A stretch of 55,492 nt of DNA, taken from positions 1 to 55,492 of the IMG/VR virus record IMGVR_UViG_3300045988_065224; one strand, written 5' to 3'. The notes beneath the pieces are model-generated. The model did not search any database. It was given only the letters and a program-made list of their open reading frames with translations, and was not told the DNA's origin. Every line of letters begins with the position of its first letter. Positions within the stretch are counted from its first letter, which is position 1. Of the stretch, positions 1,727 to 45,200 are shown one piece after another. This DNA is from a virus. The translations under genes were made by a program, and so were the position numbers.

Positions 1727-1754
1727 GATAATGTCCTCCTTTAATTTTATTTTG

Positions 1755-1784
1755 TTTCATTATAGGCTATGTATTTTCTGCGAA
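1755..1784 (-). promoter_or_regulatory. conserved promoter-like motif, copy 1
   Basis: Minus strand TTCGCAGAAAATACATAGCCTATAATGAAA, with GCAG-11 nt-2 nt-TATAAT spacing. Fills the gap between the stop of 1785..1976 and the RBS of 1421..1726. Confidence 0.55.
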
Positions 1785-4970: not shown

Positions 4971-4983
4971 ATGATTTACCTTC

Positions 4984-5013
4984 CTTTCATTATAGCATAG
5001 GGAAATCCTGCGG
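4984..5013 (-). promoter_or_regulatory. conserved promoter-like motif, copy 2
   Basis: Minus strand CCGCAGGATTTCCCTATGCTATAATGAAAG with the same invariant spacing. Overlaps the last codons and stop of 4990..5364. Confidence 0.5.
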
Positions 5014-5364
5014 AGAATATATACTACGTACTGGCTCAAATCGAGCTGGTGGTAGCATTGGGGGTTCTAGTAAGGGTCTCAGAATTAAAATATAGATTGG
5101 GGTATCAAATCCATCATGTTTCTCTTTCCTAATACTTACTAAAATATGTGGTTTTTCCAGAAAATCCACAATCATATAGTTCATCTTGATAAATGCTCCC
5201 GAAAGCTTATACCACCAATGAAATGATTTAATTATAGGATTTCCTATAAAACAAATTTTAACTTTGTCAGTATTATTAGAAGTAATATAATTATGTGTTT
5301 CATATGAATCGACAAGCGCCGAATATACCTTATTATCGAATTCAATTATAAGTCTACCTATCAT
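4990..5364 (-). CDS. hypothetical protein (124 aa); paralog of 5451..5699
   Basis: ORF 4990..5382 trimmed to ATG 5364 (MIGRLIIEF) behind GGTGG. The N-terminus resembles MAKIDRVIIEVNDNVYS of the upstream gene. Confidence 0.55.
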   Translation of the reverse strand: MIGRLIIEFDNKVYSALVDSYETHNYITSNNTDKVKICFIGNPIIKSFHWWYKLSGAFIKMNYMIVDFLEKPHILVSIRKEKHDGFDTPIYILILRPLLEPPMLPPARFEPVRSIYSPQDFPML

Positions 5365-7113: not shown

Positions 7114-7140
7114 AAGTATGTCCTCCTTATAATAAATATT

Positions 7141-7169
7141 CTTTCATTATAGGATATGTAAAAGCTGCG
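7141..7169 (-). promoter_or_regulatory. conserved promoter-like motif, copy 3
   Basis: Minus strand CGCAGCTTTTACATATCCTATAATGAAAG, between the stop of 7172..7525 and the RBS of 6931..7113. Confidence 0.55.
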
Positions 7170-7171
7170 TG

Positions 7172-27344: not shown

Positions 27345-27361
27345 TTTCACACCTCAAAAAA

Positions 27362-27397
27362 TTTAAAAATAAAAGGGATATGCAATATGCACATCCC
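27362..27397 (-). terminator. strong rho-independent terminator inside the tail module
   Basis: Minus strand GGGATGTGCA-TAT-TGCATATCCC (10-bp stem) followed by TTTTATTTTTAAATTTTTT. Confidence 0.65.
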
Positions 27398-27409
27398 CCT
27401 TACAGCTTT

Positions 27410-27817: not shown

Positions 27818-27839
27818 GTATGAATACCTCCTTTGTTAA

Positions 27840-29132: not shown

Positions 29133-29134
29133 TC

Positions 29135-31042: not shown

Positions 31043-31044
31043 TA

Positions 31045-32352
31045 TTATTTGCCGCCATTTTGAAGATCTTCTTCGCTGTACTCAGGAGGGTAATCAGAGT
31101 AAGCTTCCTCTTCAGGGGACCCGACAGACCCAGGTATAGAAACATCTTGTCTTGCATCTGAGATGTTCGGATTGTACAATTGATCAGCCATAGGATCTTC
31201 GATAGGTCCATAACCAATAATAGCACGAAATTCGTTTGATGTAAGAATTCTGTTTCGCAATAATGAATCGCCAATTGTAGCCAATTGACCAGTAGGTACA
31301 AGTTTGAAAGGATTACTATATGTATCAATTCTATGTCCTTGTGTATACCCAGTTTTAGTGATGAATTTACGTTGGAATTCTTCTTTAATTCTGGTGACAA
31401 TAGGATCAATAGTTCGAGTATAGTAATTTTGCATTTGATCGGCACTAGCGGTTCCATCTAAAATAGCTTTAGTTAGACCTAGTTGTCCCAACAATTCTTC
31501 GGTTAAGTACTTAACCTCATCCATAAGATTGGAATTGATTTGTCGGTTAAGCTGAGTAATTTTCTCATCAGCCCCAATATATGCAATACCCATTTTAGAG
31601 TCTTTCAACTGTCCTTCAATATCCCCAATACGAGCATTCGCTTCATTTCGTTTGAGATCATTTCGAACCGGATTAGGTAGTTGTAGAATGATATTCCATT
31701 TGTTAGAAATCAACTCCAAATCTTGCTTATCCAAAATCGAAAGTTTTTGAATCAAACGAGTCATAGTAGGATTCTCGGTTCCAAGGATATTAGCCAAAGG
31801 GTTCTCGATAATAGCGCACATTTTCTTAGGCACAATTATCTCGGAGAATTCTCCCTTAGCCTCATTATAAATTTTTACCCGGATTTTAGTTGGAAACCAT
31901 TCCATTATTTTTCCGACACGCATTGCTTTGATATCATACGAATCGGACTCCATAGGATTAATTGTTGCCTCTAGAGGGACAGCAGCAACTACTCCTTCGT
32001 CAAATAATGAATAAACCAAATCATGGAAGAAATCTGTGCTAGATTGATCCACGTTCATTTCTACTTCAAACAATCGTTGAAGAGAAGAAGACCTTTGAAC
32101 CACTTGATTTTCTTTTTCCATATCAATCTTTACATGTTGAAATTTAACCATAGATGCATCAATAGCAATACGGTTAAAAATCATGGAGGAAATTGCTGAT
32201 CTAGAAAACGTTCGAGTGGGTATTGAATTGTTTGGATTCAATGCCCTAGGTTCGTTAGGAATCTGGAATACTTTTTCGGTTTCCACAAATGATGCGGAAT
32301 CAGTTTTAAACATAGACCAAGCATGCTTTAGTCCATCGGTAAAAGTGCCCAT
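31045..32352 (-). CDS. portal protein (435 aa)
   Basis: ORF 31045..32412 trimmed to ATG 32352 behind GAAAGGCATATTTAGTT, just after the TerL stop. Called from position between TerL and protease-capsid and from size. Confidence 0.65.
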   Translation of the reverse strand: MGTFTDGLKHAWSMFKTDSASFVETEKVFQIPNEPRALNPNNSIPTRTFSRSAISSMIFNRIAIDASMVKFQHVKIDMEKENQVVQRSSSLQRLFEVEMNVDQSSTDFFHDLVYSLFDEGVVAAVPLEATINPMESDSYDIKAMRVGKIMEWFPTKIRVKIYNEAKGEFSEIIVPKKMCAIIENPLANILGTENPTMTRLIQKLSILDKQDLELISNKWNIILQLPNPVRNDLKRNEANARIGDIEGQLKDSKMGIAYIGADEKITQLNRQINSNLMDEVKYLTEELLGQLGLTKAILDGTASADQMQNYYTRTIDPIVTRIKEEFQRKFITKTGYTQGHRIDTYSNPFKLVPTGQLATIGDSLLRNRILTSNEFRAIIGYGPIEDPMADQLYNPNISDARQDVSIPGSVGSPEEEAYSDYPPEYSEEDLQNGGK

Positions 32353-32368
32353 AACTAAATATGCCTTT

Positions 32369-34096
32369 CTATCCAAATAAATCTTGGTTACGCTTGTACG
32401 CAACCCAAGCATCGATTAACGCAGCAACGTTATCGATTTTCTCATCAGAACGACGTTTAGATAACTTGTAGTTACCGTTGTTGTCCTGAATTGCAACAGT
32501 ATTACCCATTGCAAATTTCATTAATTCTTCGTCAAATATTAACATGCGTTCCATAGCCAAATTCTTTAATTCGCCCATCGGTACAGATTCGGTTTTAGCA
32601 CCCTGAATAACTTTTTCTACACCGTATTCACCATTGTCTCGAATCCATCTTTCGACGAATTCTCTAGCATTATACGGGTCATATCCAAATGCGTAAACAG
32701 TATATTTGTGTTGGTATACGAAGTTGTATACATCGTCATATACTCGTTCCATATCAAGAATAACTCCTGGCATAACAACAAGTGTACCCTCAGAAATCAA
32801 TTCATCATACTTATTGCGCATTGCGGAAGTTAGTTTTCTTAATTTAGACTCACAAACATACGATCTAGTTTTAACACCAAATCGTCCATGGCCAAGAGGA
32901 AATAGAAATGTGAACGCACAGAAATCATCACCTTGTGATAAGTCAGCACCCAAGGCGCATTCCAAGCCATCGAAGTTTTGAGGTCTGTGTGGAATTGTCT
33001 CTTCATAGACGAAGAAGTAAGTATAACCCTCAACAGGTATTCCGAAACGTTTAGCGAGCGTATCTGAACGAGTTGCCGGTTGATTTTCAGCACGTTCGAC
33101 TTCATCTCGATATGTTTCATAAGTTACAGTAGCTCCAAGATTAGGATTTGCTTTCATCCATAACTCGGGATTAGCAACTTCTCGTACATCATCCAGTCGA
33201 TAATACCAAATAGATACATGAGGGTTAAAATATCGACCTTCCAAAATATCCATAAGCTCCATCTTGATAGTATCTCCGACACCATCACGAGCAGTCCCTT
33301 CGGAAGATGTAGCGATTATGAGATAATTGTCATTTTTGCTAGCACCCTGTTGAATAGCTCCGATTACGTCTTCTTTGACTTCACCAGAAAGCCACTCATC
33401 AACGGATGCATACTTACAACGAAGACCTTGAAGTTTGTCTCTAGACATTGGACGAATTTCCAATAGACTGTTCGTTGCAAAGTTCTCAACACCCTTCTTA
33501 GTAGACGCTAATAATTGCTTTTTGGTTAGATTTCCGGTCATTTTAGAACCTTGTGTCATATAACCAATTAGTGGACCTTTAGCCCTACTCAACGCAGTCC
33601 TAAAAGGACCCATAATTTCCTCCGCCTGTTTCATTGTAGGCGCAGTAACTATTTGGTGAGTTGTAGCAGTGTCAATTAGAAGCATGTACGCTTGCATGAA
33701 TGTTGAGTATAGTGATTTTGCAGCACCACGTCCGACAATAAGATACTGTCTGTTCGTGAGTCGCTTGAATTTCTTTCGGATCTCCCACTTTCCAAGTTTT
33801 GGATTGTAGACATTATCCTCAGAAATGTAAAACCACGCTAGGGCACATTCTGCCCATAATCTAAAAGACGGCAAGAGAGTTACATCTCCTCCGTCGGTAA
33901 GGGTCATTTCGTTTTCACAAAATCTAATAAACCCTTGAATCGCTTTGTCGTCATAGTAATAATCCGGAGACTCAATTAAGAAGTCAATTCGGTTCATTTC
34001 CAGAGAGACCGTGCGATTAACCGGAATTTCACCTCTCAGAACTGCTTCTTTGAACTTCATATATTCTTCCGGATAAGCTTTATTAGATAATACCAT
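32369..34096 (-). CDS. terL: terminase large subunit (Terminase_1-like), 575 aa
   Basis: Walker A LIVGRGAAKSLYS, Walker B-like YASVDEW, and nuclease-domain pattern ALGADLSQGDDFCAFTFLF. Confidence 0.85.
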   Translation of the reverse strand: MVLSNKAYPEEYMKFKEAVLRGEIPVNRTVSLEMNRIDFLIESPDYYYDDKAIQGFIRFCENEMTLTDGGDVTLLPSFRLWAECALAWFYISEDNVYNPKLGKWEIRKKFKRLTNRQYLIVGRGAAKSLYSTFMQAYMLLIDTATTHQIVTAPTMKQAEEIMGPFRTALSRAKGPLIGYMTQGSKMTGNLTKKQLLASTKKGVENFATNSLLEIRPMSRDKLQGLRCKYASVDEWLSGEVKEDVIGAIQQGASKNDNYLIIATSSEGTARDGVGDTIKMELMDILEGRYFNPHVSIWYYRLDDVREVANPELWMKANPNLGATVTYETYRDEVERAENQPATRSDTLAKRFGIPVEGYTYFFVYEETIPHRPQNFDGLECALGADLSQGDDFCAFTFLFPLGHGRFGVKTRSYVCESKLRKLTSAMRNKYDELISEGTLVVMPGVILDMERVYDDVYNFVYQHKYTVYAFGYDPYNAREFVERWIRDNGEYGVEKVIQGAKTESVPMGELKNLAMERMLIFDEELMKFAMGNTVAIQDNNGNYKLSKRRSDEKIDNVAALIDAWVAYKRNQDLFG

Positions 34097-34115
34097 AAAA
34101 GAAAAATGCCCCTAA

Positions 34116-34637
34116 CTAAAAGCCCCAAATACCTCGAACTTTATTAATAGCCCCTTGATTTTCTTCTTTCAATTTTCGGAACTGATCTAAAGTAACATTA
34201 GTTATAGGAGAATACTTATTCGTTTTGTTCTTCATAAGATCTCCAACAATAGTCTTGACACCAGTATCAATAACTGAATTAGTCACTGATCGTCCAATGT
34301 CTTTAGCAAACTTACCATGTTCTTTCTTAGGTTTACGGGTATCAGCAATTTGGTTTGCACGCCGTACTTGTTCGGCGAAATCATTCTCCATACGGAGTCG
34401 TCTTGTTGCTGCTTGAAGATCATGTTCTGTCATCGAATGACGTTTATGGTACTTCATGTTCCAAGCTTTACGAGCAGCTTTACTTTCTTTTCGAGCTTGC
34501 CTCGTCTTAGAATGCAGCCATTTTGAAGGACTTCGTCTGAAACCCCATTTCATTCCTTTAACTCCGAAATGTTCAAGTATGTCATCGGAACTAGCGGTTT
34601 CAATTGCGTGGAGAAGATCTTTATCTACATCATTCAT
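34116..34637 (-). CDS. basic protein with N-terminal HFGVKGMKWG motif (173 aa); paralog family member a
   Basis: Starts MNDVDKDLLHAIETASSDDILEHFGVKGMKWGFRRSPSKW, followed by a Lys/Arg-rich remainder. Lies immediately upstream of terL. Confidence 0.65.
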   Translation of the reverse strand: MNDVDKDLLHAIETASSDDILEHFGVKGMKWGFRRSPSKWLHSKTRQARKESKAARKAWNMKYHKRHSMTEHDLQAATRRLRMENDFAEQVRRANQIADTRKPKKEHGKFAKDIGRSVTNSVIDTGVKTIVGDLMKNKTNKYSPITNVTLDQFRKLKEENQGAINKVRGIWGF

Positions 34638-34980
34638 TAGACCCCTCCCTAGTTTGTAAGATTATTCGATGTGCCGTCGATTGTAAGGATCTTTCTAAAG
34701 AAGTTAGAATACTACCTACAGGAGGATCGAACTTCAAACGAATTGATACAAGCACATATTGCTTAACCAATCGAACAAGATTCGGATCTTTATTAGGAAT
34801 CAATGATTCCCAAGTAGTATCTTTCTTAGCTTCGAAAGTTAATTGGACATTTGTAAGTTGAGATAACTCACCGACAATTCCATCCAATTCCAATAACAAT
34901 CTATCGTCATAACCAGTATCTTCTTCGGAAGCGAAATCTACAGATGTCTTAATATCATTAAGAATCGTCATATAGTTCAC
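34630..34980 (-). CDS. possible gp6-like head-tail connector / DNA-packaging protein (116 aa)
   Basis: The N-terminus ILNDIKTSVDFASEEDTGYDDRLLLELDGIVGEL resembles the Phage_connect_1 pattern. The position upstream of terL is unusual. Confidence 0.4.
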   Translation of the reverse strand: MNYMTILNDIKTSVDFASEEDTGYDDRLLLELDGIVGELSQLTNVQLTFEAKKDTTWESLIPNKDPNLVRLVKQYVLVSIRLKFDPPVGSILTSLERSLQSTAHRIILQTREGSNE

Positions 34981-35412
34981 CTACCATAATTTAGTATCAC
35001 CCGGAGATCTTTCTACGTAGTTCATTGATTGAACTCTACCAAATCCGTAATGGATTATATTATGCGTATTATATGATGTTGTGATTAATAGATCTGGGTT
35101 TAGGATAATGTCTTCGCGCCATTCTAATATGTCTTCTTCAATTAGAGGAATCATATGGTGGACTAGAGGCGGGCCTTCTATTTCGACATCCTTTACGCCC
35201 AAATCGTATCCAAGATCACGAGCAATAATATAATCACGCATATCTCTCCAAATTCTGGATTTGTAGAAAGCGTTAGAAATTTCTCTAGGCGATTTGTATC
35301 CCCTATTCATAAGGGATAGGAAATTCAGTCTATCTCCGAAATTATCAAAAGTCAAAAGTTTTTTATAGCTGAGATCACGTAAGTTTTCTCGGTTGTAATC
35401 ATTTTGAATCAT
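34981..35412 (-). CDS. HNH endonuclease (143 aa)
   Basis: VHHMIPLIEEDILEW...NPDLLITTSYNTHNIIHYG gives an H-H...N...H motif. Lies next to the terminase genes, as in HNH-dependent cos packaging systems. Confidence 0.75.
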   Translation of the reverse strand: MIQNDYNRENLRDLSYKKLLTFDNFGDRLNFLSLMNRGYKSPREISNAFYKSRIWRDMRDYIIARDLGYDLGVKDVEIEGPPLVHHMIPLIEEDILEWREDIILNPDLLITTSYNTHNIIHYGFGRVQSMNYVERSPGDTKLW

Positions 35413-35414
35413 TT

Positions 35415-35729
35415 TTATAGTTCTTCAGATGGAGCATAGCCGCGAATAGCTGCTATGACTGCCTCGCTGTCGCCCTTTCCTTTAACTTCACTTTCGATTA
35501 ATTCGATTTTAGAATCTGATAATTTCTTGTTGGATCGCATAGCTTCAAGTTGTAATTCACGCTCTGCTGTACCAAATCGCAACAAGGCATTCAAAGTACT
35601 TGGAGCTATTGATCCGTCATCAAGCTGTTTATTTGCAAGATTGAAAGCTTTCATAGTTAGCTTATCAAGCATACCTTCCGGAGTAAGTCCGGGAGGTAAA
35701 GGTTTTGCATCACTTTTCTTCCGTGCCAT
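35415..35729 (-). CDS. possible terminase small subunit (104 aa)
   Basis: Called only from position at the head of the packaging cluster and from size. Basic N-terminus MARKKSDAKPLPPGLTPEG. Confidence 0.35.
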   Translation of the reverse strand: MARKKSDAKPLPPGLTPEGMLDKLTMKAFNLANKQLDDGSIAPSTLNALLRFGTAERELQLEAMRSNKKLSDSKIELIESEVKGKGDSEAVIAAIRGYAPSEEL

Positions 35730-36060
35730 ACTCAGTCACCTCTTTTGGTTGAGATTGCTGAAGACGGCGAAGTTCTTGAACGGCATGTTCAATATAGTCA
35801 GATGCTTGTTCAGATGTAAGTTTCACACCTGTTTCTGATGCGTAAGACAATAGCTTATCCAAAGCTTCTTTTTTCTTAGAAGTGTTTTCAATTAGCATAT
35901 TGTCTAATGCTGTTACAATAATTAGAGCTCGCTCAGCGAGTGTGATTACTGCTTTGTTGTGCGTTGCTGCCCCGAGGTACTTAACTAGGTTCAATACTAC
36001 CGGTGCAAATACGATAACTAAAGTTACCAATGTGATAATATCATCTACTGCAATTGTCAT
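35710..36060 (-). CDS. holin-like protein (LL-H / Phage_holin_6-like pattern), 116 aa
   Basis: N-terminal TM stretch IITLVTLVIVFAPVVLNLV, then ...KKKEALDKLLSYASETGVKLTSEQASDYIEHAVQEL. This matches the G-x-K-L-T-x-E-Q...IE-x-AV signature I recall for LL-H family holins. Confidence 0.5.
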   Translation of the reverse strand: MTIAVDDIITLVTLVIVFAPVVLNLVKYLGAATHNKAVITLAERALIIVTALDNMLIENTSKKKEALDKLLSYASETGVKLTSEQASDYIEHAVQELRRLQQSQPKEVTEYGTEEK

Positions 36061-36473
36061 TTTTCTTTCTCCTTATTCGAAGCTCGGAGTTCCTCCACAT
36101 AGTCGTCAACAACACGAGAGACATACGAGTTGTAGCCTTTCTCTTTGTATTGATCGTACAGGTAGAGAATCTCGCTCTCAGATAATCTACCGGAATGAAT
36201 GCCAGTAATTATCTGTAGTCTAAGAAAATCTCTTTCTTGATTTCTATGAAGTTCTTGAAAGCTGACTGTGAGAGCATTGATAGAGTTTTTAATGCTATCA
36301 ATCTCATCATTCTGTTTCGCTTCAAGGCTGATCCATAACTTTTTAAAAGCTTTGATGCCAACCCCATAGATAGATGCGCCGACACCAATGTAAACACCAA
36401 TTTGACTAAGTACCTCAGGAGATATCAACCACATTAGTAGTGCTTTGATATGCTCTTGCATTTCATTGCTCAT
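36057..36473 (-). CDS. membrane protein with coiled-coil C-terminus (138 aa)
   Basis: AAAGGAGGATAAACC before the ATG. Hydrophobic stretch QIGVYIGVGASIYGVGI. First gene after terminator 36572..36613. Confidence 0.55.
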   Translation of the reverse strand: MSNEMQEHIKALLMWLISPEVLSQIGVYIGVGASIYGVGIKAFKKLWISLEAKQNDEIDSIKNSINALTVSFQELHRNQERDFLRLQIITGIHSGRLSESEILYLYDQYKEKGYNSYVSRVVDDYVEELRASNKEKEK

Positions 36474-36515
36474 GGTTTATCCTCCTTTTGATCATACATC
36501 CACCCTAGATAGTAA

Positions 36516-36528
36516 TCCCAAATTGGGA
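36516..36528. promoter_or_regulatory. 13-bp palindrome TCCCAAATTGGGA in the leader of the late gene string; candidate operator
   Basis: Perfect palindrome lying between the terminator and the RBS of 36057..36473. The minus strand has TTGAAA just upstream. Confidence 0.3.
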
Positions 36529-36571
36529 CTTTCAACCACTCCGGAGAAATTTTGGAGAGGTGGGGCGATGC

Positions 36572-36613
36572 AAAAGGGTCGAAAAATTTTGCGACCCTCC
36601 CCCTATGGGGGTG
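36572..36613 (-). terminator. tandem-hairpin rho-independent terminator after 36619..36939
   Basis: Minus strand CCCCC-ATA-GGGGG, then GGGTCG-CAAAATTTTT-CGACCC followed by TTTT. Confidence 0.65.
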
Positions 36614-36618
36614 TGAAT

Positions 36619-36939
36619 TTATTCTTCTGATTTTTCATTTTCAGAAGTTGGTAGACGAATCGGTGTTTGTGTATCTGTACGACAAACAGTCCAAACATCT
36701 TCAATTGGACCTTCATCAATGATTAGGTTGATGGCCATAGCATGACGTTGAGCTTCTTCAACTTCATCTAACACATCATCAGTGTTACCAATGACAGCTG
36801 CTAGTAGTTCTGATGTGAAGTAACCATTGTCTTCATCCCACTTCTTCCATGAATCAAAGTCAGAGAAAGGATTGTATGGATTGTCGAATGTAGTTAACAT
36901 TGTATCAACTACTGTTGTTGCTTGCAAGTAATCTTCCAT
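36619..36939 (-). CDS. strongly acidic hypothetical protein (106 aa)
   Basis: ORF-track ORF. Rich in Asp/Glu and contains FDNPYNPFSDFDSWKKWDEDNGYFTSELLA. Confidence 0.6.
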   Translation of the reverse strand: MEDYLQATTVVDTMLTTFDNPYNPFSDFDSWKKWDEDNGYFTSELLAAVIGNTDDVLDEVEEAQRHAMAINLIIDEGPIEDVWTVCRTDTQTPIRLPTSENEKSEE

Positions 36940-36960
36940 AACAGTTGTCTCTCCTTTCTA

Positions 36961-39594
36961 CTAGACTAGGTTCTGGATTGTAGAGATGCTTACGCCTAAA
37001 GCTTCAGCTACTTCAGCATAGCTGTGTCCGTTACGAATCATGGACTTAGCTCTAGATGCATTAGATAGACTAAGGGACTTCTCTTCTCTAGGTGTAGCTA
37101 ACTGTTTGACTCTATCGGTGTTAGCAAAGCGTAAGATGTCTGTAAGCATCTTAGTACTAACAGCACCAGATTGAATAGCTTTCCATTCATCATCTTCAAT
37201 GTTGATACGAGTCTTAGCGCCATCAGCACCAGTCTGAAGACGGGCAGCAGCAATAGCTTGTTGTTTAAGCTTCTTGAGTTGGTCCTTCTGCATGTCAGGA
37301 TCTCTCTTCTCAGCTATAACTTTGTTAGCAATGAGCTGTGCTTGACGTTCTCTAGGTGAGTTAGCTAAAGCAGTATTAAGCTTGTGTTGTAGAGACTCTA
37401 CTTGGTCTCGATACTTCAGTTTAGCTTCCTTGTTAACGACTAGGTTAGGCGAAGACTCAACAACCTTGTTGGCTTTGTCACGCATCTTACCAAGGGCATT
37501 GATATAATCCCCATACATGTTTTCGATAGGGGTACCAGAACCAAGGGTCTTAGCATCCTTAACCATTTCCACAACATGATCAGTTGAAATAGTTTTAGTT
37601 TTCTTGATCTTAGGAGCAAGTCTAGGATTAGCTGCTAGCTCTTCAGGAGTTCGATCCTTATACCATGTCTCTAGAGTACGGTGCTCTGTTTTAGATCTAG
37701 AAATAAGAGTGGAGGCTCCATTTTTTATAGTACCAGAAATAACATCGTAGTGATCTTGGTACTTCTTTTTTAGAGCGGGGATATCATTTTCCCTTTCAGA
37801 TCTTTTATAATCTAGATTATGTTTTTCAGCATCAATAACAACCATTGAATGTTTTACTGCACGAGCAATCTCAGATTGACTAGCACCTTTAAGAGTCATG
37901 TCAGTAATAAGGTTTGATACTTCACCCATTGTCTTCTGCTTGATTGTCCAGTTACCTTTTGAATCACGCTTAAGAATATTCTTGTCTGGAGAATAATACT
38001 GATTAGTATCAAAGTTCTTAAGTTCTTTCAAAGAACGACTTGTCTTAATACCGTTTTTATTATTAGGAATAACCATAACAGTATCACCATCAAAGTCTGC
38101 ACCTGACAATTTGCTAGCTACGGATGAATCAATACCGACCGCATCTTTAGCGCCCTTCATAAATTTAGCAGGACCATTACCAAGCTTGTTGTTTACAGTA
38201 AGTTCGGGCAGTTCGAATATTCCTCCATGAGGATAACGAACAAGAACAACCTTCTCACCATTCTTAAAGTTCGGTGCATAGATTTCATTAGCTTTGATAC
38301 CTGATAAAGGTAACAGAACTTGACCACGCATTCGATCAAAACCTGTGAGTTTCAAATTATGACGTTTGGTGGTTAAACCATTTGCAAAATCTGCCATCAT
38401 AATTCTACGGACTACAGGATTATTTAAATTGGCTATTTCATCAAACTCTTTTTGGAGTTTCTCATATGTCTTTTGAATACGACCTTTAACCAATATAGGT
38501 GGTTGCTTGGAAACAAACTGAGAAGATAAGGTTTTTGACCAAGTTCCCCAGTCACCTTCTTCATTAACTTTATTGATAGCACCTTTTTGTCCATTAGGTT
38601 TAATTTGTGCACCGAATGGATTATCAGGGTCATCTTTAAGTTTCTTAAGAACATCTTCTTTAGGTGTTCCTTGTTTCTTGTTGGTGTTGAATATGACATC
38701 TACGCCTTTAGGGAAATCTTTTGGATCTCCATAAACAGCCATACCTTTAAGATAATGTGTTCCTCCAACACCAATACGAACTTGGGCATACTTGGAATTT
38801 CCTAAGTCAAGGTCTTTAACGCCAGGACGTAATTCCATGACACCATCTTTGTCGGTTCCTCCTTGTTCATCATAACGAATACCAACGCGTTTCCAATCAA
38901 GATGTTCAATTGGTTTTAATCCTAATTTAGTTGTTCCGTCTTCAGTCTTATATAAATTAGGAGGTTTGATTTCGTGTTTGTGTTCTCTGACAATATCCGG
39001 ATTAGACTCTTTTGTTAAAACTTTCATTTCAACCCAATGGTCGTCGTTTGTGGCATTCTTCACATACACTTTATGCATGTGGTAGCCATCAGCTTCAAGT
39101 TGTTGTACTGCACGTTTAAGCATATTTTCGTTTATACCTAATTGTTGCGCAGCTCCGAGACCGACATCAAGATATGGGTTTTCTTTAATTAAATCTTTTA
39201 AATCCGATTTAACTTGTTCCATACGATTAACATTATTCCTAACTTGTTCGTTAAGATTCATTCGAACAGTTGATTCCGGTAAACCAGTTCTACGAGATAT
39301 TTCAGTAGGACCATAACCTTTCTCATGAAGCTCCATAACCATAGATTGATTTCTTAAACGAACAGTTTGATTAGCAATGGTATTTCTAGCTCGAAACTCG
39401 GTTGTAGTAATGCCGATCTTTGCAGCAATCTGAGTGTCAGTTAAACCGTTTTTACGATATTTTGCAACAGTGTCTGACCACGAGGTTGCACGCTGATATG
39501 AATTTTCACCAGAACCCCAGGCATAGCGTCCACTATGAGGAGTGTTACCTTGGTGGGGTGTACCTTTATGAATTAAGTATTCTTCAAGATCCAT
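36961..39594 (-). CDS. candidate single-polypeptide two-barrel (DPBB) RNA polymerase, YonO / RdRP-like, with HTH modules (877 aa)
   Basis: Residues 449-510, VVLVRYPHGGIFELPELTV...SKLSGADFDGDTVMVIP (DFDGD at nt 38083..38097), align with the beta-prime VLLNRAPTLHRLGIQAFEP...NADFDGDQMAVH segment and with the LSGGDxDGD signature of QDE-1/RDR. A beta-like segment GGTHYLKGMAV (compare GRHGNKG) lies at aa 277-287. HTH-like segments lie at aa 50-70, 93-113 and 855-877. Confidence 0.55.
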   Translation of the reverse strand: MDLEEYLIHKGTPHQGNTPHSGRYAWGSGENSYQRATSWSDTVAKYRKNGLTDTQIAAKIGITTTEFRARNTIANQTVRLRNQSMVMELHEKGYGPTEISRRTGLPESTVRMNLNEQVRNNVNRMEQVKSDLKDLIKENPYLDVGLGAAQQLGINENMLKRAVQQLEADGYHMHKVYVKNATNDDHWVEMKVLTKESNPDIVREHKHEIKPPNLYKTEDGTTKLGLKPIEHLDWKRVGIRYDEQGGTDKDGVMELRPGVKDLDLGNSKYAQVRIGVGGTHYLKGMAVYGDPKDFPKGVDVIFNTNKKQGTPKEDVLKKLKDDPDNPFGAQIKPNGQKGAINKVNEEGDWGTWSKTLSSQFVSKQPPILVKGRIQKTYEKLQKEFDEIANLNNPVVRRIMMADFANGLTTKRHNLKLTGFDRMRGQVLLPLSGIKANEIYAPNFKNGEKVVLVRYPHGGIFELPELTVNNKLGNGPAKFMKGAKDAVGIDSSVASKLSGADFDGDTVMVIPNNKNGIKTSRSLKELKNFDTNQYYSPDKNILKRDSKGNWTIKQKTMGEVSNLITDMTLKGASQSEIARAVKHSMVVIDAEKHNLDYKRSERENDIPALKKKYQDHYDVISGTIKNGASTLISRSKTEHRTLETWYKDRTPEELAANPRLAPKIKKTKTISTDHVVEMVKDAKTLGSGTPIENMYGDYINALGKMRDKANKVVESSPNLVVNKEAKLKYRDQVESLQHKLNTALANSPRERQAQLIANKVIAEKRDPDMQKDQLKKLKQQAIAAARLQTGADGAKTRINIEDDEWKAIQSGAVSTKMLTDILRFANTDRVKQLATPREEKSLSLSNASRAKSMIRNGHSYAEVAEALGVSISTIQNLV

Positions 39595-39605
39595 ACTATG
39601 CCTTT

Positions 39606-40181
39606 CTATTCGGGTTTCCGTTCAAGAATCGCCGAAAATTCTTTGATTGTATTATAAACATCGTACACATCTTCCGCTTCAGGAATATATGTATCGATTT
39701 TGTTACCTTGGTAAATACGCAATTCGAAATCTACTCTTTCTGGTTTCTGACCATACTCCAAGCAGAAATAAGCAGCGTAAACAAGAAGTTGTTCCATTTT
39801 TGGCTTGGTCTTACCAGTTTTCAAATCATGAATCCTAAGAAATCCACGAGGATTATCTTTTGTTGGTGGATCATAACGAATTGCATCGGCAGTGCCAAAA
39901 GCATAAGGACTGTAAAATAACAAGACTTCGCTATCCATACGATATCCGATTGCATCATTAACAAAATTTGCAACTGCGGGATGTGTATGGCCTGGCTCTA
40001 ATCTAATTCTATGTTGAATAGATAAGCTAGCGAACTCGTGAAGTTCTGTTCCTCTTTGTTTAGCCTTCTCATTTTCAAAGCGTTCAACGAGTTTTTCCGG
40101 ATCATAATTAAGCCAATGACATTGACTGGCACTAAGGAAACTATGATGTCCTTCGTACTCGGGATGTTTGTTCCATCTCAT
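39606..40181 (-). CDS. PD-(D/E)XK (RecB/Cas4-like) exonuclease, 191 aa
   Basis: FGTADAIRYD...FLRIHDLKTGKTKPKMEQLLVYAAYFCLEY gives the D...D-x-K core typical of the phage PDDEXK_1 exonuclease. Confidence 0.55.
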   Translation of the reverse strand: MRWNKHPEYEGHHSFLSASQCHWLNYDPEKLVERFENEKAKQRGTELHEFASLSIQHRIRLEPGHTHPAVANFVNDAIGYRMDSEVLLFYSPYAFGTADAIRYDPPTKDNPRGFLRIHDLKTGKTKPKMEQLLVYAAYFCLEYGQKPERVDFELRIYQGNKIDTYIPEAEDVYDVYNTIKEFSAILERKPE

Positions 40182-40452
40182 TCAATATAGCCTCCTTATT
40201 TTCAGGATAAATGGTTCTTGCCCAACCGCCTGTCAAATTATACTTGTTTAAGTAATATTCTTGATTAGGACGATACGGTGCAGTTCCACTACGTTTGACT
40301 TCTAAATGATAGGAATATGGACCAAGGTCTACTGATAAGTCAGGTATTCCTTGAATATAGCTAGAGTCATTCTTTTTAACTATAGCATCAGGAAAACGAC
40401 TTTTAATATCCTTGATTAGTTCTCTTTGGAAATCGCGCTCCAATCTGGACAT
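40141..40452 (-). CDS. VRR-NUC-like nuclease (103 aa)
   Basis: ATG 40452 behind GGGTGACAAATAT. ...FQRELIKDIKSRFPDAIVKKNDSSYIQGIPDLSV...YHLEVKRSG gives a PD...E-x-K motif. Confidence 0.55.
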   Translation of the reverse strand: MSRLERDFQRELIKDIKSRFPDAIVKKNDSSYIQGIPDLSVDLGPYSYHLEVKRSGTAPYRPNQEYYLNKYNLTGGWARTIYPENKEAILNEMEQTSRVRRTS

Positions 40453-41600
40453 ATATTTGTCACCCAATTCCTTTCATTGAATTTCTTTTTAGATTTTATA
40501 GACCTAGATATTGCGTCATCAATTGAAGCCGGGCTTTTGAAATATACATAATAAAGATTTTCAAAGGAGGTATTCACGCGATTGATTCGACCTTCTGACT
40601 GGTCCATTATCCTGTATGAATAGTTTAGGGAAAAGAATAGAATGCTATCAGTAGTTATGCAATTCCATGCCTCGGCTCCTGCGGTGTACTGCACTAAATA
40701 TATCCACGAGTCACTGTTTGGTATAGTTTCGTGCTTACTGCCGTTGTATTGATAATACGCTCTATTTAATTCTCGACAAATATCTTTCAAGATGTCGAGC
40801 TCATAGATATAGTTGTAAAACACAATTACTTTGTCTCTTGTCATGATTTCATTCTTGACGGCTTCTTTTCTACGGTCGGAGGAATTAACGATTCTTCTCA
40901 ACACTTGTGTAAATTCCGAAGCGCTGGTAATAGGTTCTTCCGTATATGGGTTAACCCTTGACTTCATTACCTGAGAATATAAATCTTTATCAAAAGATGT
41001 ATTAATTGTGAGTCGGTTAACTTTAGTTTTTCTAAAGTCTTCCATAGCCACCACCAAACTTCTACGGAGCCTATCTAATCGGTCCACTCCATGATATCGT
41101 TTGATCTGTGGGAATTTTGAATATGGATTGTATTCAACATGCATATCAACAAACTGAGATTTGTTTTTGTAAAATCCGTTTGCAATAAATAAACACATCC
41201 AATCTATCCATACATCACCAGGCGTTGCTGTTAGCATTATCCATTTATTTTTTCGGGCAATCTTAATAAAAGACATACCCCACGAACCATAACCGATTGC
41301 TCGTTGTTCGTCGAATAAAAAGAATGCGTTTTCAACATCAGTGTATTTGGTAATATTATTCCAAGAATCAACAGTCCCATTTATACCTAGAGCTTCCATA
41401 TCTCTATGCCACTCTTTATCGTTTCGCTTTTTAGCTACTGTGATAATATACAATGGTAAGTCTTTGTGATTCTTCAAATAATAAAATAGGCCGGTAAAGG
41501 ATTTACCAGAACCGACCTTCCCTAACAATACGGAACCATTATTCAATCTATCAACTGCCTGACGTTGATAGTCGTATAATTCAATTTTATTAGAAGCCAT
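40416..41600 (-). CDS. SF2 (SNF2/DEAD-like) helicase, 394 aa
   Basis: Motif I GKVGSGKS, motif II LFDEQ, motif III LTATPG, motif VI QSEGRINR. Confidence 0.7.
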   Translation of the reverse strand: MASNKIELYDYQRQAVDRLNNGSVLLGKVGSGKSFTGLFYYLKNHKDLPLYIITVAKKRNDKEWHRDMEALGINGTVDSWNNITKYTDVENAFFLFDEQRAIGYGSWGMSFIKIARKNKWIMLTATPGDVWIDWMCLFIANGFYKNKSQFVDMHVEYNPYSKFPQIKRYHGVDRLDRLRRSLVVAMEDFRKTKVNRLTINTSFDKDLYSQVMKSRVNPYTEEPITSASEFTQVLRRIVNSSDRRKEAVKNEIMTRDKVIVFYNYIYELDILKDICRELNRAYYQYNGSKHETIPNSDSWIYLVQYTAGAEAWNCITTDSILFFSLNYSYRIMDQSEGRINRVNTSFENLYYVYFKSPASIDDAISRSIKSKKKFNERNWVTNICPDWSAISKEN

Positions 41601-42129
41601 ATTTACGACGGAGTGGGTTGTCCGCTACACGAATATAAGCATTCTTAAGGTTGAGACGAGCATACTGTCCATCTGGACTTGGGTCTCGTCGAGCAATAGT
41701 CATATCACAAATTGAGATTTCTAAGTCATCAATAAGTGATAGTTGACTTTCTTCTGTAAGATACATGCGATCACGTGGATCAATATCAGCATCAACCGGA
41801 GTATTACCATTATCATAAATAATTGCAATACTTGGTAGGTTGAATTGTGTATATACACGGACCTTGAAGAAATAAGCAGGTTCAAACATGTCTGGATTTT
41901 CTTCCATCTTAGCTGCGAGATCATCTGGAACATCTTTAGGTTCGTATTTCTTAATGTTTACACCGTAAGATAAGAGCAAGTCAACATCTTCTGGGTTTAC
42001 CTTAACGTTAAAATAACGATCTCCTGCGCGGTTGTATTTTTCTTGACGCCCTGTGAAGTTACGAGCGAAGAGAAAATCCACTTCTTCCAGAATAATCTGG
42101 GAATCTGAAATTTGTGAAATCTTTGTCAT
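41590..42129 (-). CDS. hypothetical replication-module protein, possibly an ssDNA-binding protein (179 aa)
   Basis: Called from position between polymerase and helicase and from the acidic C-terminal half. No firm motif. Confidence 0.35.
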   Translation of the reverse strand: MTKISQISDSQIILEEVDFLFARNFTGRQEKYNRAGDRYFNVKVNPEDVDLLLSYGVNIKKYEPKDVPDDLAAKMEENPDMFEPAYFFKVRVYTQFNLPSIAIIYDNGNTPVDADIDPRDRMYLTEESQLSLIDDLEISICDMTIARRDPSPDGQYARLNLKNAYIRVADNPLRRKYGF

Positions 42130-42172
42130 TAGTATGTCCTTTCTATTCTGACGTTAGTCTGACATTGTTTTC

Positions 42173-42220
42173 AAAAAAGAAGAGAAGAGAACAAATCAGC
42201 AGAATTTTGTTCTTCCTCTC
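42173..42220 (-). terminator. hairpin plus T-run located downstream of promoter-like motif copy 9; terminator or attenuator
   Basis: Minus strand GAGAGGAAGAACAAA-ATTCTGCTGA-TTTGTTCTCTTCTCTTC followed by TTTTTT. Confidence 0.5.
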
Positions 42221-42248
42221 TATTATGTGCCATGTAAATCCTGCGAAG
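42215..42248 (-). promoter_or_regulatory. conserved promoter-like motif, copy 9 (CATAAT variant)
   Basis: Minus strand CTTCGCAGGATTTACATGGCACATAATAGAGAGG with the same GCAG-11-2-hexamer spacing. Lies between the polymerase stop and the hairpin. Confidence 0.45.
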
Positions 42249-42276
42249 CCTAAAATCAACCTGCGGGAAAATTCAA

Positions 42277-45200
42277 TCACGAGTTCTCAGATGTTTTGAT
42301 TTTGAGAGTTCCGTGATCGATAGAAATGGTTTGTGTGCTTGGATATTTGTCTTGAAGTTCAAGATCGTCAACATAGTCCTTAGGCATGTCGTCAACAATA
42401 TCTTTGATATCGCCAACCTTCATGATTTTCTTAAGACCATCGACAGCAATCTTATCGTAGAAGCTGAAATCAACATCTTCAATATCAAACTTATCTGTTT
42501 GTTTGAACAAATATCCTTTCGTTCCAGTAATGGACTTGAAGTTTTCATTATCTTCTGTCCACATACATTCCGCACCAGTCTTAGATGCATAAATAGAGCC
42601 AACCTTACCAACGAATTCGTCACCGAGATAAATATGACCTTTCGATTGTTTGGTGATGAAGAAATCTTTATCAACCAATTCCTCTTTTGTCCATACTCGT
42701 TTCAACAAATATGTATTGGCGTACTCTGCTCCAGTTGGCGACCAAGCATCATTTTCAAGTTGAGCAATATAAACAGCGTTGTTGATTAGAGCCATACGTT
42801 TATAAGTATGCTCATGTTCAAATCGATATCTATACTTCTCTTGAGCTCCGAAGTCTTCAACAAATTTAATAATCTTCTCATCTGCATTTGGAATCTTAAC
42901 AGAGTCAGTCTTAATATGACAAACCTGATATCCTTGCTCTTCTATAGCAAATTTCAAATCGACCATAAATAATGCTCCACGTTTTGCAACGATGTTGTCA
43001 ATATTATCTGGGTGTTTGAACTTGTTATCAAATTTAGCAGAGGTCATTCCGTAAACAGAGTTGATTACGATCTTCAATGCGGTTACCAAAGGTTTGAGAT
43101 ATTCTGGATTATCCAAGAACGGAGCCAAGACACCATCAAACATTTGTTTAACTTCATCAATCTTGTTGTGTTTCAACAATACACGTACCTTCAACAAGTC
43201 AGCATATCGTTGAGTATATGGACCGAAGTAGTTCATATTTACAAGAGAGTTAGGATGCATTGACTCAACGTCAAGCAAAGCGATATTCTTGTATACACCA
43301 GGTTCGGCATATACAAATCCTCCTTCACCAGTTTCAAAGCCACGGTAATATGACTTACCGAACTCATACTTGTATCCTGGGAATATGGTCGCGAGGTTGA
43401 CATAATTAAATTTGTCTTGTGGACGTGGGTCATCACCAAAGATAAATTTAGCTGTCAATTGGTTGTTAGTTGCATTCATCGAACCTTTAGCAATTGTAGC
43501 CAAGATTTCACGCGCAACATAGTCTGCATAAATAGCGTCGAACAATTTCTCAGTTGCATCAACGTCGTTAACACAGTAATCAACAACAACAGGAATTAAC
43601 TCATCAGGAACAGGTTGGTCCCAAGGAATTTCCATCTCGACGTGTTTGATACCAAGATCAACTTCCCAACGTTTAAGCGATTGTTTCTTCTGAGCGTACT
43701 CGTAAATATCGGTATAGCTTAATTCGTAAGCCGCCGCATACATTCCACTCTTCGCATTTTTTTCGTTGACAATTCTATATGACTGACGGAATAACTCAAG
43801 ATTGTTACATCCAAGTAATCGAGCATAGAGAATATGGTTATCGTATCGTCGGTTATTAAATCCAACGATAGGGAAACTCAACAAATATTCAATCTGATCT
43901 GGAGTTGGGTTAATCCATTTTGTAAATTCGTCATCATGGTATTTCTTCCAGACGACTACAAACAGATTAGGATATACCTCAATATCGAAGAACACCAATT
44001 CTTCTTTTGGATATATCTTCGTGAAGTTTGTAAGCTTATTTTCAGTAGCTCCCTCATCATCTCGAATAGACGACCAAGGAATCTTTTGAAATACTGCAAC
44101 ACAATATTCTTTGTTGTTCGTTGAACGCAACGCTCGAAGAAATACATCATGCTTCAAATCAGTCAAGTCATATTCAAGACCCATGTCAAAAGCTTTCTGA
44201 ATTTCACTAGCAATAAAATCAATAGTTGGCTTTGTATTTGGGTGACTGGGTTCTTTACCCTCAATCTGTCCCAATTGCCTCTTGACGAAATTACGCAACG
44301 TCTTTTCTGTATATGTGATTTCTTTCACATGCTCATACATCGTCTTATCCTTTCTCTCTTTCAACGGCAAGCCCGATGAAATATGAGATGGTTGTAAGTT
44401 GTTGGATGCTTTGTCAATCCGTCTCAGAGAGGCGTTGCCTTTATACACTTTGATTTCAATATGCTTGTCAACCAAATTATTTAACTCATTGACATTACCG
44501 TCGTAGATATAATGCAAATGAATACCGTGACCCGATTTTGAGACCTCCGCATAAGTCGGTGGAAATTTTGAAGCTGCCTCAATATTTAAATCAAGACTTT
44601 TATTCCCTTCCTCGTCTTTCAAATCAAAATCAATGATAATATGATTAAGTGGAACCTTAACCCAATGCAACTTGCTTGTTTTGATATCGGATAAAGTAGT
44701 CACGACATTATCCCATTTTTCAGATGGATTACCATTTCGTAAAGCCAGCTGCGCAGGATATTCAGCTGCTAGTTTATTAAACACCTCGTTGTGATAATTG
44801 AAATCTAACCAGTCGTCTGGAATAACAGTATCATTTGCCTCAGTTGTACCTACGACACCTTCAGGGAATGCAACATTCCATCTGAACCCTTTGAAATAAT
44901 TGTTAACACGCATACCATCGATATGACTATCTTTAAGCATTGTGTCAAAATATCTAAGAGCCTCTCTCTTGATGGTTGCTTTGTATCCGTCCGTCTTCCA
45001 CCCCATATCTTCCAGATACTCACGATATAACTCACTGATTTGTTTAAGAGTTATACCATGTTGCATATGAATCGCATTGGTTCGCATGAAGTCAAAGATA
45101 TGGTCGGTCTGTTCTGCCATGTCGACATCAAAATAATCATCGTAGTAATCAAAACCCAATTCTTCAAATCTTTGAATTGCCATGTTAGCAATATATGGTA

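Follow-up and report, generated by a model that had tools for sequence, protein, structure and literature searches.

A predicted two-barrel RNA polymerase with fused helix-turn-helix modules, and a promoter-like motif conserved with it, in a phage of the 1706/actinophage supercluster

The polymerase gene and its predicted fold

The stretch of DNA analyzed here (the window) comprises 55,492 nucleotides (nt) from a virus, IMG/VR record IMGVR_UViG_3300045988_065224, positions 1 to 55,492, and all of its genes lie on the minus strand. Positions 1-55 recur as an exact direct repeat at 55438-55492, so the window is a genome of about 55,437 bp assembled as a closed circle, in which the natural ends do not show. 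The subject of this study is one open reading frame (ORF) with an ATG start and a product of 877 amino acids (aa), whose position and predicted domains are given in Table 1. A sequence-only reading of the window had proposed that it encodes a single-polypeptide, two-barrel RNA polymerase (RNAP) of the RNA-dependent RNA polymerase (RdRP)-like type with built-in helix-turn-helix (HTH) modules, and this proposal is supported by the match to PHROG 4291, by invariant catalytic residues, and by fold matches.

The catalytic segment was found where that reading had placed it, at aa 449-510, running from VVLVRYPHGGIFELPELTV (VVLVRYPHGG…) to GIDSSVASKLSGADFDGDTVMVIP and closing in SGADFDGDTVMVIP. The upstream barrel-like segment with a conserved lysine, said to lie about 220 aa away, corresponds to aa 275-287 (GVGGTHYLKGMAV), in which K283 is invariant and precedes D500 by 217 residues. 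Three HTH-like segments (aa 51-71, 93-114, and 857-877) were likewise confirmed, Pfam HTH models and helix pairs in the AlphaFold model agreeing on them.

With HMMER, 1.84 billion cluster representatives were searched exhaustively, which yielded at least 763 clusters (50% identity) at E<=1e-30, and full-length homologs with 38-44% identity were found in 249 further phage records, whose hosts include Arthrobacter, Gordonia, Streptomyces, Rhodococcus, Microbacterium, Curtobacterium, Lactococcus (the 1706 group), and Faecalibacterium. Spanning 763 clusters and 250 phage genomes (full-length matches in 249 of the 250), the PHROG 4291 family is a large one, and purifying selection acts on it. Among 86 aligned homologs with 39-67% identity (A1), residues D250, Q271, R273, K283, G284, R453, P455, H456, S497-G498-A499-D500, and D502-G503-D504 are invariant, and in a second alignment of 103 sequences (A2) the eight catalytic residues D250, R273, K283, R453, P455, D500, D502, and D504 are invariant as well. 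The aspartate triad, whose conservation the sequence-only reading had named as a check, is thus retained throughout both sets. Eight such residues are common to all two-barrel RNAPs, in QDE-1 as D709, R738, K743, R962, P964, D1007, D1009, and D1011 (PMC2919709); D250, R273, and K283 were equated with this signature by order and invariance, not by residue-level superposition. Downstream of the metal-binding loop, a helix pair at aa 550-592 contains the invariant residues M556, G557, N561, L562, D565, I587, D588, K591, and H592 and falls inside the Pfam RdRP alignment; it may correspond to the bridge helix.

Profile comparisons place the protein in PHROG 4291 ('RNA-dependent RNA polymerase') at E 5.5e-303, with aa 14-875 aligned to profile positions 14-903 of 909. 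The Pfam family RdRP (PF05183) aligns to aa 489-616, that is, the DFDGD region and the downstream helices, at E 4.3e-5 and 22.8 bits, 1 bit short of the gathering cutoff of 23.8, and a PF05183 match is precomputed for two homologs that are 88% identical to the polymerase. Only HTH families pass the Pfam threshold. In searches against sequences in the PDB with the single sequence or the 86-sequence profile, the significant matches were to HTH proteins only, and the DFDGD segment gave weak profile matches to the TMP-RNAP of P23-45 (E 0.59) and the beta-prime subunit of AR9 (E 1.7). NCBIfam holds no model covering the polymerase core. Since sequence comparison with solved structures was insufficient, a structure-based test was needed.

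AlphaFold models were obtained for the full-length protein (pLDDT, the predicted local distance difference test score, 79.1; pTM, the predicted template modeling (TM) score, 0.71) and for the core alone, aa 225-640 (pLDDT 88.7, pTM 0.82); within the protein, the core has the most confident fold and the strongest conservation. Foldseek matched the full-length model to QDE-1 (E 1.9e-8), maize RDR2 (6.5e-7), and gp62 of the Thermus phage P74 (1.9e-6), each with a probability of 1.00. Because the HTH arms are flexible, the full-length TM-scores of about 0.3 were uninformative, and the search was repeated with the core. The best match was again QDE-1 (E 1.6e-10, TM-score normalized to the query 0.55), followed by P74 gp62/P23-45 gp64 (E ~2e-9, 0.43-0.46), RDR2 (E 1.6e-7, ~0.5), the P23-45 virion RNAP gp96 (E 1.3e-5, 0.28), AR9 beta-prime (E 6.5e-4, 0.19), and Pol IV, Pol II, and bacterial beta-prime (E 2.6e-4 to 1e-2, at most 0.2). 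The N-domain of p97, a textbook double-psi beta-barrel (DPBB), was matched at E 5.7e-3 with a TM-score of 0.17. The search for two DPBB domains suggested earlier therefore ended in two-barrel RNAPs at a probability of 1.00, and the core model together with Foldseek indicates the two DPBBs and single active site that define the two-barrel superfamily.

Profiles, conservation, and predicted fold are three independent lines that agree, and they support the prediction that the protein is a single-polypeptide two-DPBB polymerase of the QDE-1/RDR (cellular 'RdRP') branch. The likeness to QDE-1/RDR-type enzymes that had been noted for the DFDGD loop is seen in the fold and in the Pfam RdRP match. No likeness to YonO of phage SPbeta was detected at the sequence level: hhalign of the family profile gave no meaningful match to YonO, and BLASTP aligned the DNDGD loop only, at E 0.96. 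Membership in the YonO family was rejected on these grounds, and the polymerase is 'YonO-like' at the level of superfamily and fold only.

Both termini carry HTH modules, which are kept in the A1 and A2 consensus sequences. In the model the N-terminal module consists of helices at aa 39-168 followed by a beta-hairpin at 172-194, and the C-terminal module has six short helices at 801-876. Pfam matches include HTH_23 (E 4.4e-11), HTH_IclR at aa 91-112, HTH_40 at aa 85-161, and Sigma70_r4_2 at aa 855-876 (37.7 bits, cutoff 25.7); HTH_23, HTH_38, and HTH_24 also match the C-terminal module. The likeness to sigma-70 proteins is confined to this region-4-like HTH, with no Pfam match to region 2 or 3 in the polymerase, and TIGR02937 reached 19 bits, far under its cutoff of 42.9.

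The N-terminus itself is a conserved box with the family consensus LxHYGTxRxSGRYPWGSGxxPYQR, in which G11, S21, G22, R23, and G27 are invariant and H9, Y24, S28, G29, and Q34 (in A1) and W26 (in A2) are at least 90% conserved. It is also present in the orthologs of 1706, ReqiPoco6, HotFries, and FP_oengus. Its resemblance to the DUF7211 box, LxH[FY]G[VI]KGMKWGxR, is suggestive only: hhalign gave a probability of 85.7% over 13 columns, and a DUF7211 hidden Markov model (HMM) matched the N-termini of 86% of real sequences versus 15% of shuffled ones, with overlapping scores. In the window, the DUF7211 box (…IEHFGVKGMKWGxR…) itself occurs near the N-terminus of four small, very basic proteins, and the DNA encoding it appears as a repeat family (D4); in relatives, it occurs in proteins adjoining the terminase and portal genes, including the 'structural' ORF7 of 1706. 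A literature search on the DUF7211 box returned nothing usable. The box may be a virion-targeting or processing signal.

A promoter-like motif in the window and its relatives

A motif of about 30 nt, CGCA-N14-TATAAT-GAAA (ttCGCanaatTTACAtgnnCTATAATGaAA; copies read TTCGCAGnnnTTTACATAnnCTATAATGAAAG), occurs nine times in the window, always on the coding strand. Scoring was done with a pooled position weight matrix (PWM), which replaced a strict regular expression that had missed the variants of 1706 and FP_oengus; the nine copies score 25-35 bits, and the next-best site in the window reaches 12.4. The copies head nine non-structural transcription units, among them the right-end operon that contains the polymerase gene, and none lies in the late block. 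The distance from motif to ribosome-binding site (RBS) or start codon is 10-35 nt, and several copies directly follow a terminator hairpin. The copy at 1751..1784 is the last before the replication genes, which run across the circular junction.

Against an expectation of 5.9±2.6, window positions 1-12700 hold 15 terminator-like hairpins; nearly all of them are on the coding strand, and many lie immediately upstream of a motif copy. Because hairpins precede motif copies in this way, the small-gene block reads as a chain of terminator-promoter-gene units, as in 1706 and FP_oengus. One unit is non-coding: directly 3' of its motif copy lies an ORF-free stretch of about 230 nt with a tRNA-like element (9317-9396, minus strand) that has an oversized anticodon loop. 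This element scored 21.9 bits (E 0.027) against the Rfam tRNA model, whose gathering score is 29, and ARAGORN and Rfam at gathering thresholds reported no RNA genes in the window.

We rejected the motif as a canonical sigma-70/sigma-A promoter. Its spacings are 14 nt from TTCGCA to TATAAT and 5 nt from TTTACA to TATAAT, and sigma-70-type sites occur at chance level in the scans (61 versus 57±8, and 54 versus 43±6).

The same spacing (CGC[A/G]-N14-hexamer, with TTTAC/ATACA at a fixed offset) was found in relatives infecting five host genera: at least 10 copies in 1706 (Lactococcus), seven in HotFries (Streptomyces), seven in KeaneyLin (Arthrobacter), one in a fragment of ReqiPoco6 (Rhodococcus), and 14 in FP_oengus (Faecalibacterium), where the hexamer is TTTATG. 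These copies are always on the coding strand and in the small-gene and replication regions, with none in the late blocks. A PWM built from the window copies alone recovers the copies of 1706 and KeaneyLin, and in the controls SPbeta and Dp-1 the motif is at chance level.

The analysis was extended to 80 further polymerase-encoding IMG/VR loci, with polymerase identities of 41-96% and GC contents of 31-55%. The motif was found 92 times on the coding strand, versus six times on the other strand and 10 times in shuffled sequences; of the 52 loci that exceed 12 kb in length, 45 contain a match, and all but one of the 92 matches are located upstream of the polymerase gene. An operon of VRR-Nuc, exonuclease, and polymerase genes is preceded in 43 loci by a copy at 867-1128 nt upstream of the polymerase, and in the 14 loci of the window's own clade the copy lies ~2.48-2.66 kb upstream. 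Many variants have TTTATG in place of TATAAT and so do not have the A and T required by sigma-70-family proteins. No mention of the motif occurs in the publications on these phage clusters that were searched.

The motif cores CTATAGTAGAAAG (1706, 24030-42931) and TTATAGTGAGACC (HotFries, 22691-39411) resemble the T7 and SP6 promoters in their initiation regions, which read …CACTATAGGGAGA and …ACACTATAGAAG. As the T7 and SP6 enzymes are unrelated single-subunit polymerases, this likeness probably reflects convergence on a melting box that is AT-rich and has purines after it.

The phage, the gene neighborhood, and the genome ends

The closest record is Caudovirus D_HF5_2C from human saliva, whose polymerase is 86% identical at the amino acid level, and the gene order of the window is collinear with that of the homolog-bearing phages, so that the phage is a member of the Lactococcus 1706/actinophage supercluster. 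The sequence-only reading had taken it for a Dp-1-like siphophage, and this assignment was rejected. Dp-1 is unrelated: it has a different set of genes, including a clamp loader, queuosine genes, and a sigma-28-like gene, distributes its genes over both strands, and has no homolog of the polymerase; only the Pal-like endolysin resembles Dp-1. This endolysin has choline-binding repeats and suggests a host of the mitis group of Streptococcus, with choline in the cell wall; the phage is a human oral one, its host probably a Streptococcus. The endolysin gene lies inside the replication region, about 11 kb from a holin-like gene at 35710-36060.

The polymerase gene ends the replication block and is followed by one small gene, hairpins with a T-run, and the late genes, just as had been described from the sequence. 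Upstream are genes for a primase-polymerase (DUF5906) and then a single-stranded DNA (ssDNA)-binding protein. The operon of the polymerase also includes a 394-aa ORF collinear with the annotated DNA helicase of relatives and a 108-aa ORF collinear with their VRR-Nuc gene, both without a Pfam match, and a putative nuclease with a sub-threshold match to DUF2800. Past the small gene and the hairpins follow the holin, an ORF at the position of the relatives' annotated HNH endonuclease (again without a Pfam match), connector, terminase, portal, and the remaining structural block. The earlier statement that the genome encodes no sigma factor or other RNAP also stands: none, nor any other transcription protein, was found among the 49 other ORFs scanned with Pfam or PHROGs.

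In 1706 (orf76), HotFries (gp57), ReqiPoco6 (gp107), FP_oengus (gp56), and D_HF5_2C the polymerase gene is likewise followed by a small gene, and the small acidic protein encoded at this position could be an accessory factor of the polymerase. The hairpins behind its gene were not listed by a simple terminator scan; their arrangement is homologous at the right ends of 1706, HotFries, and ReqiPoco6. The cos-like junction and the hairpins preceding it are homologous to the termini of 1706, HotFries, ReqiPoco6, and KeaneyLin, and the hairpin loop holds TCGCA(A) in all four phages (GGGTCGCAAAA, GGTTCGCAAAA, GTCTCGCAAC, and GTCTCGCGAT), the same pentamer as in the 5' half of the promoter-like motif.

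The predicted cos junction matches the right termini (TGCATCGCC…T) and the left termini (C(T/C)C(T/C)AAAAT(T/A)TC…CCG) of the linear records of 1706, HotFries, ReqiPoco6, and KeaneyLin, and the ReqiPoco6 record annotates a 3' cos overhang. On the strength of this match, the polymerase gene would lie about 400 bp from the right physical end. By synteny with relatives it follows the VRR-Nuc and exonuclease genes and is the last large gene ahead of the right cos end, and 46 of the 80 related contigs end less than 700 nt past the polymerase stop codon.

Several other features were recorded. A DUF1599 protein ('nucleotide modification associated domain 1') and a DUF6353 protein are encoded at 49622-50380 and 54315-55190 on the minus strand, and FP_oengus has three DUF6353 paralogs in its small-gene region. 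The presumed tape measure ORF (17813-25216, 2467 aa) contains in-frame 54-nt tandem repeats and a repeat with a spacing of 177 nt, at 19680-19949 and 22360-22579. FP_oengus encodes an integrase and a recombination directionality factor (146-1387), so the polymerase family is not confined to strictly lytic phages.

Table 1 Features of the window, all on the minus strand
Feature	Position	Strand	Basis or score
Predicted two-barrel (RdRP-like) RNAP gene, HTH-fused, 877 aa	36961..39594	-	ORF, PHROG 4291, AlphaFold, Foldseek
N-terminal disordered conserved box, aa 5-34	39493..39582	-	Invariant columns, pLDDT <50
Predicted N-terminal DNA-binding module, aa 39-194 (HTH aa 51-71 and 93-114, helical/winged-helix-like unit)	39013..39480	-	Pfam, model
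Predicted first barrel, DPBB-B, beta-subunit-like, aa ~237-345 (D250, R273, K283)	38560..38886	-	Invariant columns, model beta-strands 237-345
Predicted second barrel, DPBB-A, beta-prime-like, aa ~423-510 (R453-x-P455 and metal-binding loop S497-GADFDGD-504)	38065..38328	-	Invariant columns, Foldseek
Bridge-helix-like long helix pair past the catalytic loop, aa 550-592	37819..37947	-	Helices 550-568 and 573-592
Predicted C-terminal DNA-binding module, aa 801-877 (terminal sigma-70 region-4-like HTH, aa 855-876)	36964..37194	-	Pfam, model
Motif copy, right-end operon (ssDNA-binding protein, helicase-like, VRR-Nuc-like, nuclease, polymerase, small gene)	42214..42247	-	PWM 28.2
Motif copy TTCGCATATTTTACATATCCTATAATGAAAAG, before ORF 9941-10366; hairpin 10474-10492 just upstream	10391..10424	-	PWM 35.2
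Motif copy before ORF 9467-9856; terminator hairpin 9918-9936 just upstream	9877..9910	-	PWM 25.2
Motif copy, non-coding unit with tRNA-like element; hairpin 9436-9454 just upstream	9392..9425	-	PWM 35.2
Motif copy before ORF 8341-8718	8720..8753	-	PWM 28.2
Motif copy before small ORF (start ~8233); hairpin 8318-8332 just upstream	8270..8303	-	PWM 32.9
Motif copy before small ORF (start ~7096)	7138..7171	-	PWM 30.5
Motif copy before small ORF (start ~4965)	4981..5014	-	PWM 28.5
Motif copy before ORF 1421-1726	1751..1784	-	PWM 34.3
Small acidic gene, 106 aa	36619..36939	-	PHROG 4303, E 1.4e-20
Two hairpins (CCCCC-ATA-GGGGG and GGGTCG-N10-CGACCC), then TTTT; terminator-like operon end	36571..36611	-	Sequence read directly
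Predicted cos junction …TGCATCGCCCCACCT / CTCCAAAATTTCTCCGG…; genome ends ~36557/36558	36540..36570	-	Homology to termini of relatives
Endolysin, Amidase_5 and choline-binding repeats (Pal-like)	46781-47686	-	Pfam
DUF7211-box proteins	34116-34637, 26273-26899, 25224-25913, 10637-11299	-	Pfam

Proposed function, alternatives, and known systems

We propose, with a probability of roughly 0.55, that the enzyme is a DNA-dependent, promoter-specific phage transcriptase and that the motif is the promoter read by its fused HTH modules. The fused modules, including the sigma-region-4-like one, would act in the role of a sigma factor and read the upstream half of the motif (CGCA…TTTACA), positioning the two-barrel active site at the AT-rich TATAAT/TTTATG element; the DNA would melt there, and RNA synthesis would begin a few bases downstream of this element. 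The regulon would be the non-structural part of the genome, including the polymerase operon, and the expression of early and replication genes would thereby be independent of host promoter specificity. The first enzyme molecules may arrive with the virion, or else a trickle of host transcription would seed a self-amplifying loop.

The conservation of a 30-nt element across two host phyla implies that its reader must travel with the phage. This protein is the sole DNA-binding or transcription-type ortholog common to the whole supercluster (Koert et al. 2021, 10.1101/842583), and gp64 and gp96 of P23-45 are promoter-specific enzymes for early and pre-early genes (PMC10770324). Since it is the only shared ortholog of this type, no other regulator was found, and gp64 and gp96 offer a precedent, the polymerase is the candidate reader of the motif. 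A role of the HTH modules in promoter recognition, which the sequence-only reading had suggested, is indirectly supported, because the promoter-like motif is conserved with the protein across host phyla.

Delivery of the polymerase in the virion is proposed because ORF75 of 1706 is labeled 'structural protein' and because the DUF7211-like box is shared with proteins encoded beside terminase and portal; we put this at about one chance in three. A fuller version, which we regard as doubtful, is a self-contained machine in which HTH modules replace sigma and read the promoter of about 30 nt, recognizable in phages from Streptomyces to Streptococcus, the enzyme is carried in the virion by means of the DUF7211-like box common to it and small basic proteins, and both infection and synthesis of the enzyme itself start without host RNAP. 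If true, it would explain how the lineage crosses phyla and has a G+C content far from that of its hosts.

Several observations weigh against a promoter-specific transcriptase that reads the motif, or against parts of this proposal. The Firmicutes and Arthrobacter variants of the motif include a perfect TATAAT, so that host sigma-A could use it, at least weakly, and motif and polymerase are co-inherited in one phage lineage, so that their co-occurrence is no proof of recognition. The polymerase gene itself lies behind a motif copy, which creates a chicken-and-egg problem if the enzyme is not packaged. Presence in the virion goes back to one unconfirmed GenBank label, that of 1706 ORF75; the 'structural' label of ReqiPoco6 was copied by similarity, the DUF7211 likeness is weak (13 columns, with HMM scores overlapping those of shuffles), and literature searches for virion or proteome data on the family returned nothing usable. 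The closest solved relatives, QDE-1 and RDR2, are mainly RNA-templated, and this model identifies no promoter for the late genes. No biochemical or transcriptomic study of any family member was found in the literature.

The main alternative, possible but tentative, reverses the roles of the two components: host sigma-A RNAP would use the motif as an unusually conserved early or middle promoter and thus produce the polymerase along with the replication proteins, and the two-barrel enzyme, like YonO, would transcribe the late block of about 24 kb, after circularization or concatemer formation, from a start site just past cos or by read-through of the terminator of its own operon. Such a scheme requires no packaged enzyme and would account for the perfect TATAAT of several lineages, and the position of the polymerase gene fits, directly upstream of the late block on the circular map. 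None of the genomes examined has the motif, or an excess of sigma-70-like sites, in its late block, which must therefore be transcribed by something other than the reader of the motif. However, the upstream conserved block is not positioned as a -35 element, most copies are not called sigma-70-like, and the FP_oengus-type TTTATG variants do not have the key -10 positions. A 30-nt element kept across two phyla and a phage GC range of 31% to 61% is hard to explain by host sigma alone, and the gap after cos holds no conserved late-promoter candidate. YonO, moreover, has no sequence similarity to the family, and no fused HTH modules were seen in it in sequence comparisons, which did not include a Pfam test.

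Two further explanations fit the evidence less well. The enzyme could be something other than a general transcriptase, making short RNAs that prime or activate replication at HTH-bound sites, or copying RNA or ssDNA, for example in counter-defense. The gene closes the replication module, in synteny with those for primase-polymerase, helicase, VRR-Nuc, and exonuclease, and the closest solved structures, QDE-1 and RDR2, copy RNA or ssDNA, both DNA- and RNA-templated activity being reported for QDE-1 (PMC9508822). We nevertheless consider this role unlikely, as the phage already has a primase-polymerase, motif copies that are oriented with and directly before many genes and an RBS form the pattern of promoters and not of an origin, and the characterized single-chain two-barrel enzymes of phages (YonO, crAss gp66, P23-45 gp64, and gp96) are all transcriptases. 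It is highly improbable that the polymerase fold is dead and that the protein serves only in DNA binding or as a structural component, a notion in keeping with most GenBank records, which call it an HTH DNA-binding protein (that of 1706 'structural', others 'transcription factor'), and with Pfam, where the matches above threshold are HTH families only. The metal-binding aspartates and the basic residues contacting nucleoside triphosphates and RNA are invariant over hundreds of divergent clusters, which is not expected of an inactive protein, and no other part of the protein is folded as confidently or conserved as well as the core.

Single-chain two-barrel RNAPs are seen as present-day models of the enzyme from which all cellular RNAPs descend, and only a handful have been studied so far (YonO, crAss gp66, P23-45 gp64 and gp96, and QDE-1). 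The present family is found in 250 sequenced phages, many of them cultivable through SEA-PHAGES, and viromes of the human mouth and gut contain it in abundance. The modules presumed to confer its specificity are part of the same polypeptide, and the family is now paired with a candidate promoter conserved in two host phyla and with a defined regulon. If the pairing is correct, it would provide a minimal sigma-independent, two-barrel, promoter-specific transcription system for biochemistry and structural work, a possible orthogonal expression tool for Gram-positive bacteria, and a mechanistic explanation for the spread of the lineage between phyla. Inconsistent public labels ('HTH DNA-binding protein', 'structural protein', 'transcription factor D5', 'excise', 'hypothetical') could also be unified.

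Enzymes of this kind had been described before, as predictions; the sequence-only reading knew of no such description for a Dp-1-like streptococcal siphophage. The 1706 protein was listed as one of five YonO-like families and argued from its invariant residues to be a real polymerase (Ruprich-Robert & Thuriaux 2010, PMC2919709), and the family was later predicted as a signature gene of the actinophage-Firmicutes supercluster, with an HHpred probability of 95.7% to PF05183, a DxDGD motif, and HTH at both ends (Koert et al. 2021, 10.1101/842583). PHROG 4291 bears the name, and RefSeq calls several members 'RNA-dependent RNA polymerase', most SEA-PHAGES records reading 'helix-turn-helix DNA-binding domain protein'. 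The enzyme is thus a new member of a predicted family, and what is new here is the motif and its pairing with the enzyme.

Within this family, represented by 1706 ORF75 and including members from Streptomyces BI, Arthrobacter, Gordonia, Rhodococcus Pepy6/Poco6, and Microbacterium EL phages and Faecalibacterium phage FP_oengus, nothing essential differs. Homology extends over the full length at 38-48% identity, reaching 86% for D_HF5_2C, and the HTH-core-HTH layout, the catalytic residues, the synteny (VRR-Nuc, exonuclease, polymerase, small gene, cos), and the upstream motif are the same, except that in the window's clade the nearest motif lies ~2.6 kb upstream instead of ~0.9 kb. QDE-1 of Neurospora and plant RDR2 share the barrel order (beta-like, then beta-prime-like) and the eight catalytic residues and are the best structural matches, with an identity to the phage protein of only 12-15%. 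Unlike them, the phage protein has fused HTH modules, belongs to a double-stranded DNA phage, and has its gene behind and beside promoter-like motifs, a context that speaks for promoter-specific synthesis on DNA templates rather than for RNA silencing.

Among phage enzymes, gp64 of P23-45 with its P74-26 counterpart gp62 (the non-virion RNAP) and gp96 are single-chain two-barrel RNAPs matched by the core fold. Gp64 and gp96 recognize promoter motifs of their own upstream of early and pre-early genes (PMC10770324), the logic that we propose here. They have no significant sequence similarity to our protein (E 0.59), and the term 'helix-turn-helix' does not occur in PMC10770324 (0 occurrences), which suggests that they have no fused HTH. 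Their genome context differs as well: gp96 is fused in the tape measure protein, and its delivery with the virion is proven, whereas that of the present enzyme is hypothetical. YonO of the Bacillus phage SPbeta is also a single-chain two-barrel RNAP of a Firmicutes siphophage, with a DxDGD loop and a gene immediately upstream of the late genes; SPbeta has no copies of the motif above chance, and the mode of promoter recognition by YonO is still unsettled in the literature. Virion-packaged RNAPs form a functional class with N4 vRNAP, crAss gp66, P23-45 gp96, and phiKZ vRNAP as members. The two-barrel gp66 of phage phi14:2 (crAss-like), related to QDE-1, was not among the Foldseek matches listed and may be an analogy for a packaged enzyme that starts early transcription. 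The virion RNAP of N4 has a T7-like, unrelated fold and could be a functional analogy of the same kind, a packaged polymerase that starts early transcription.

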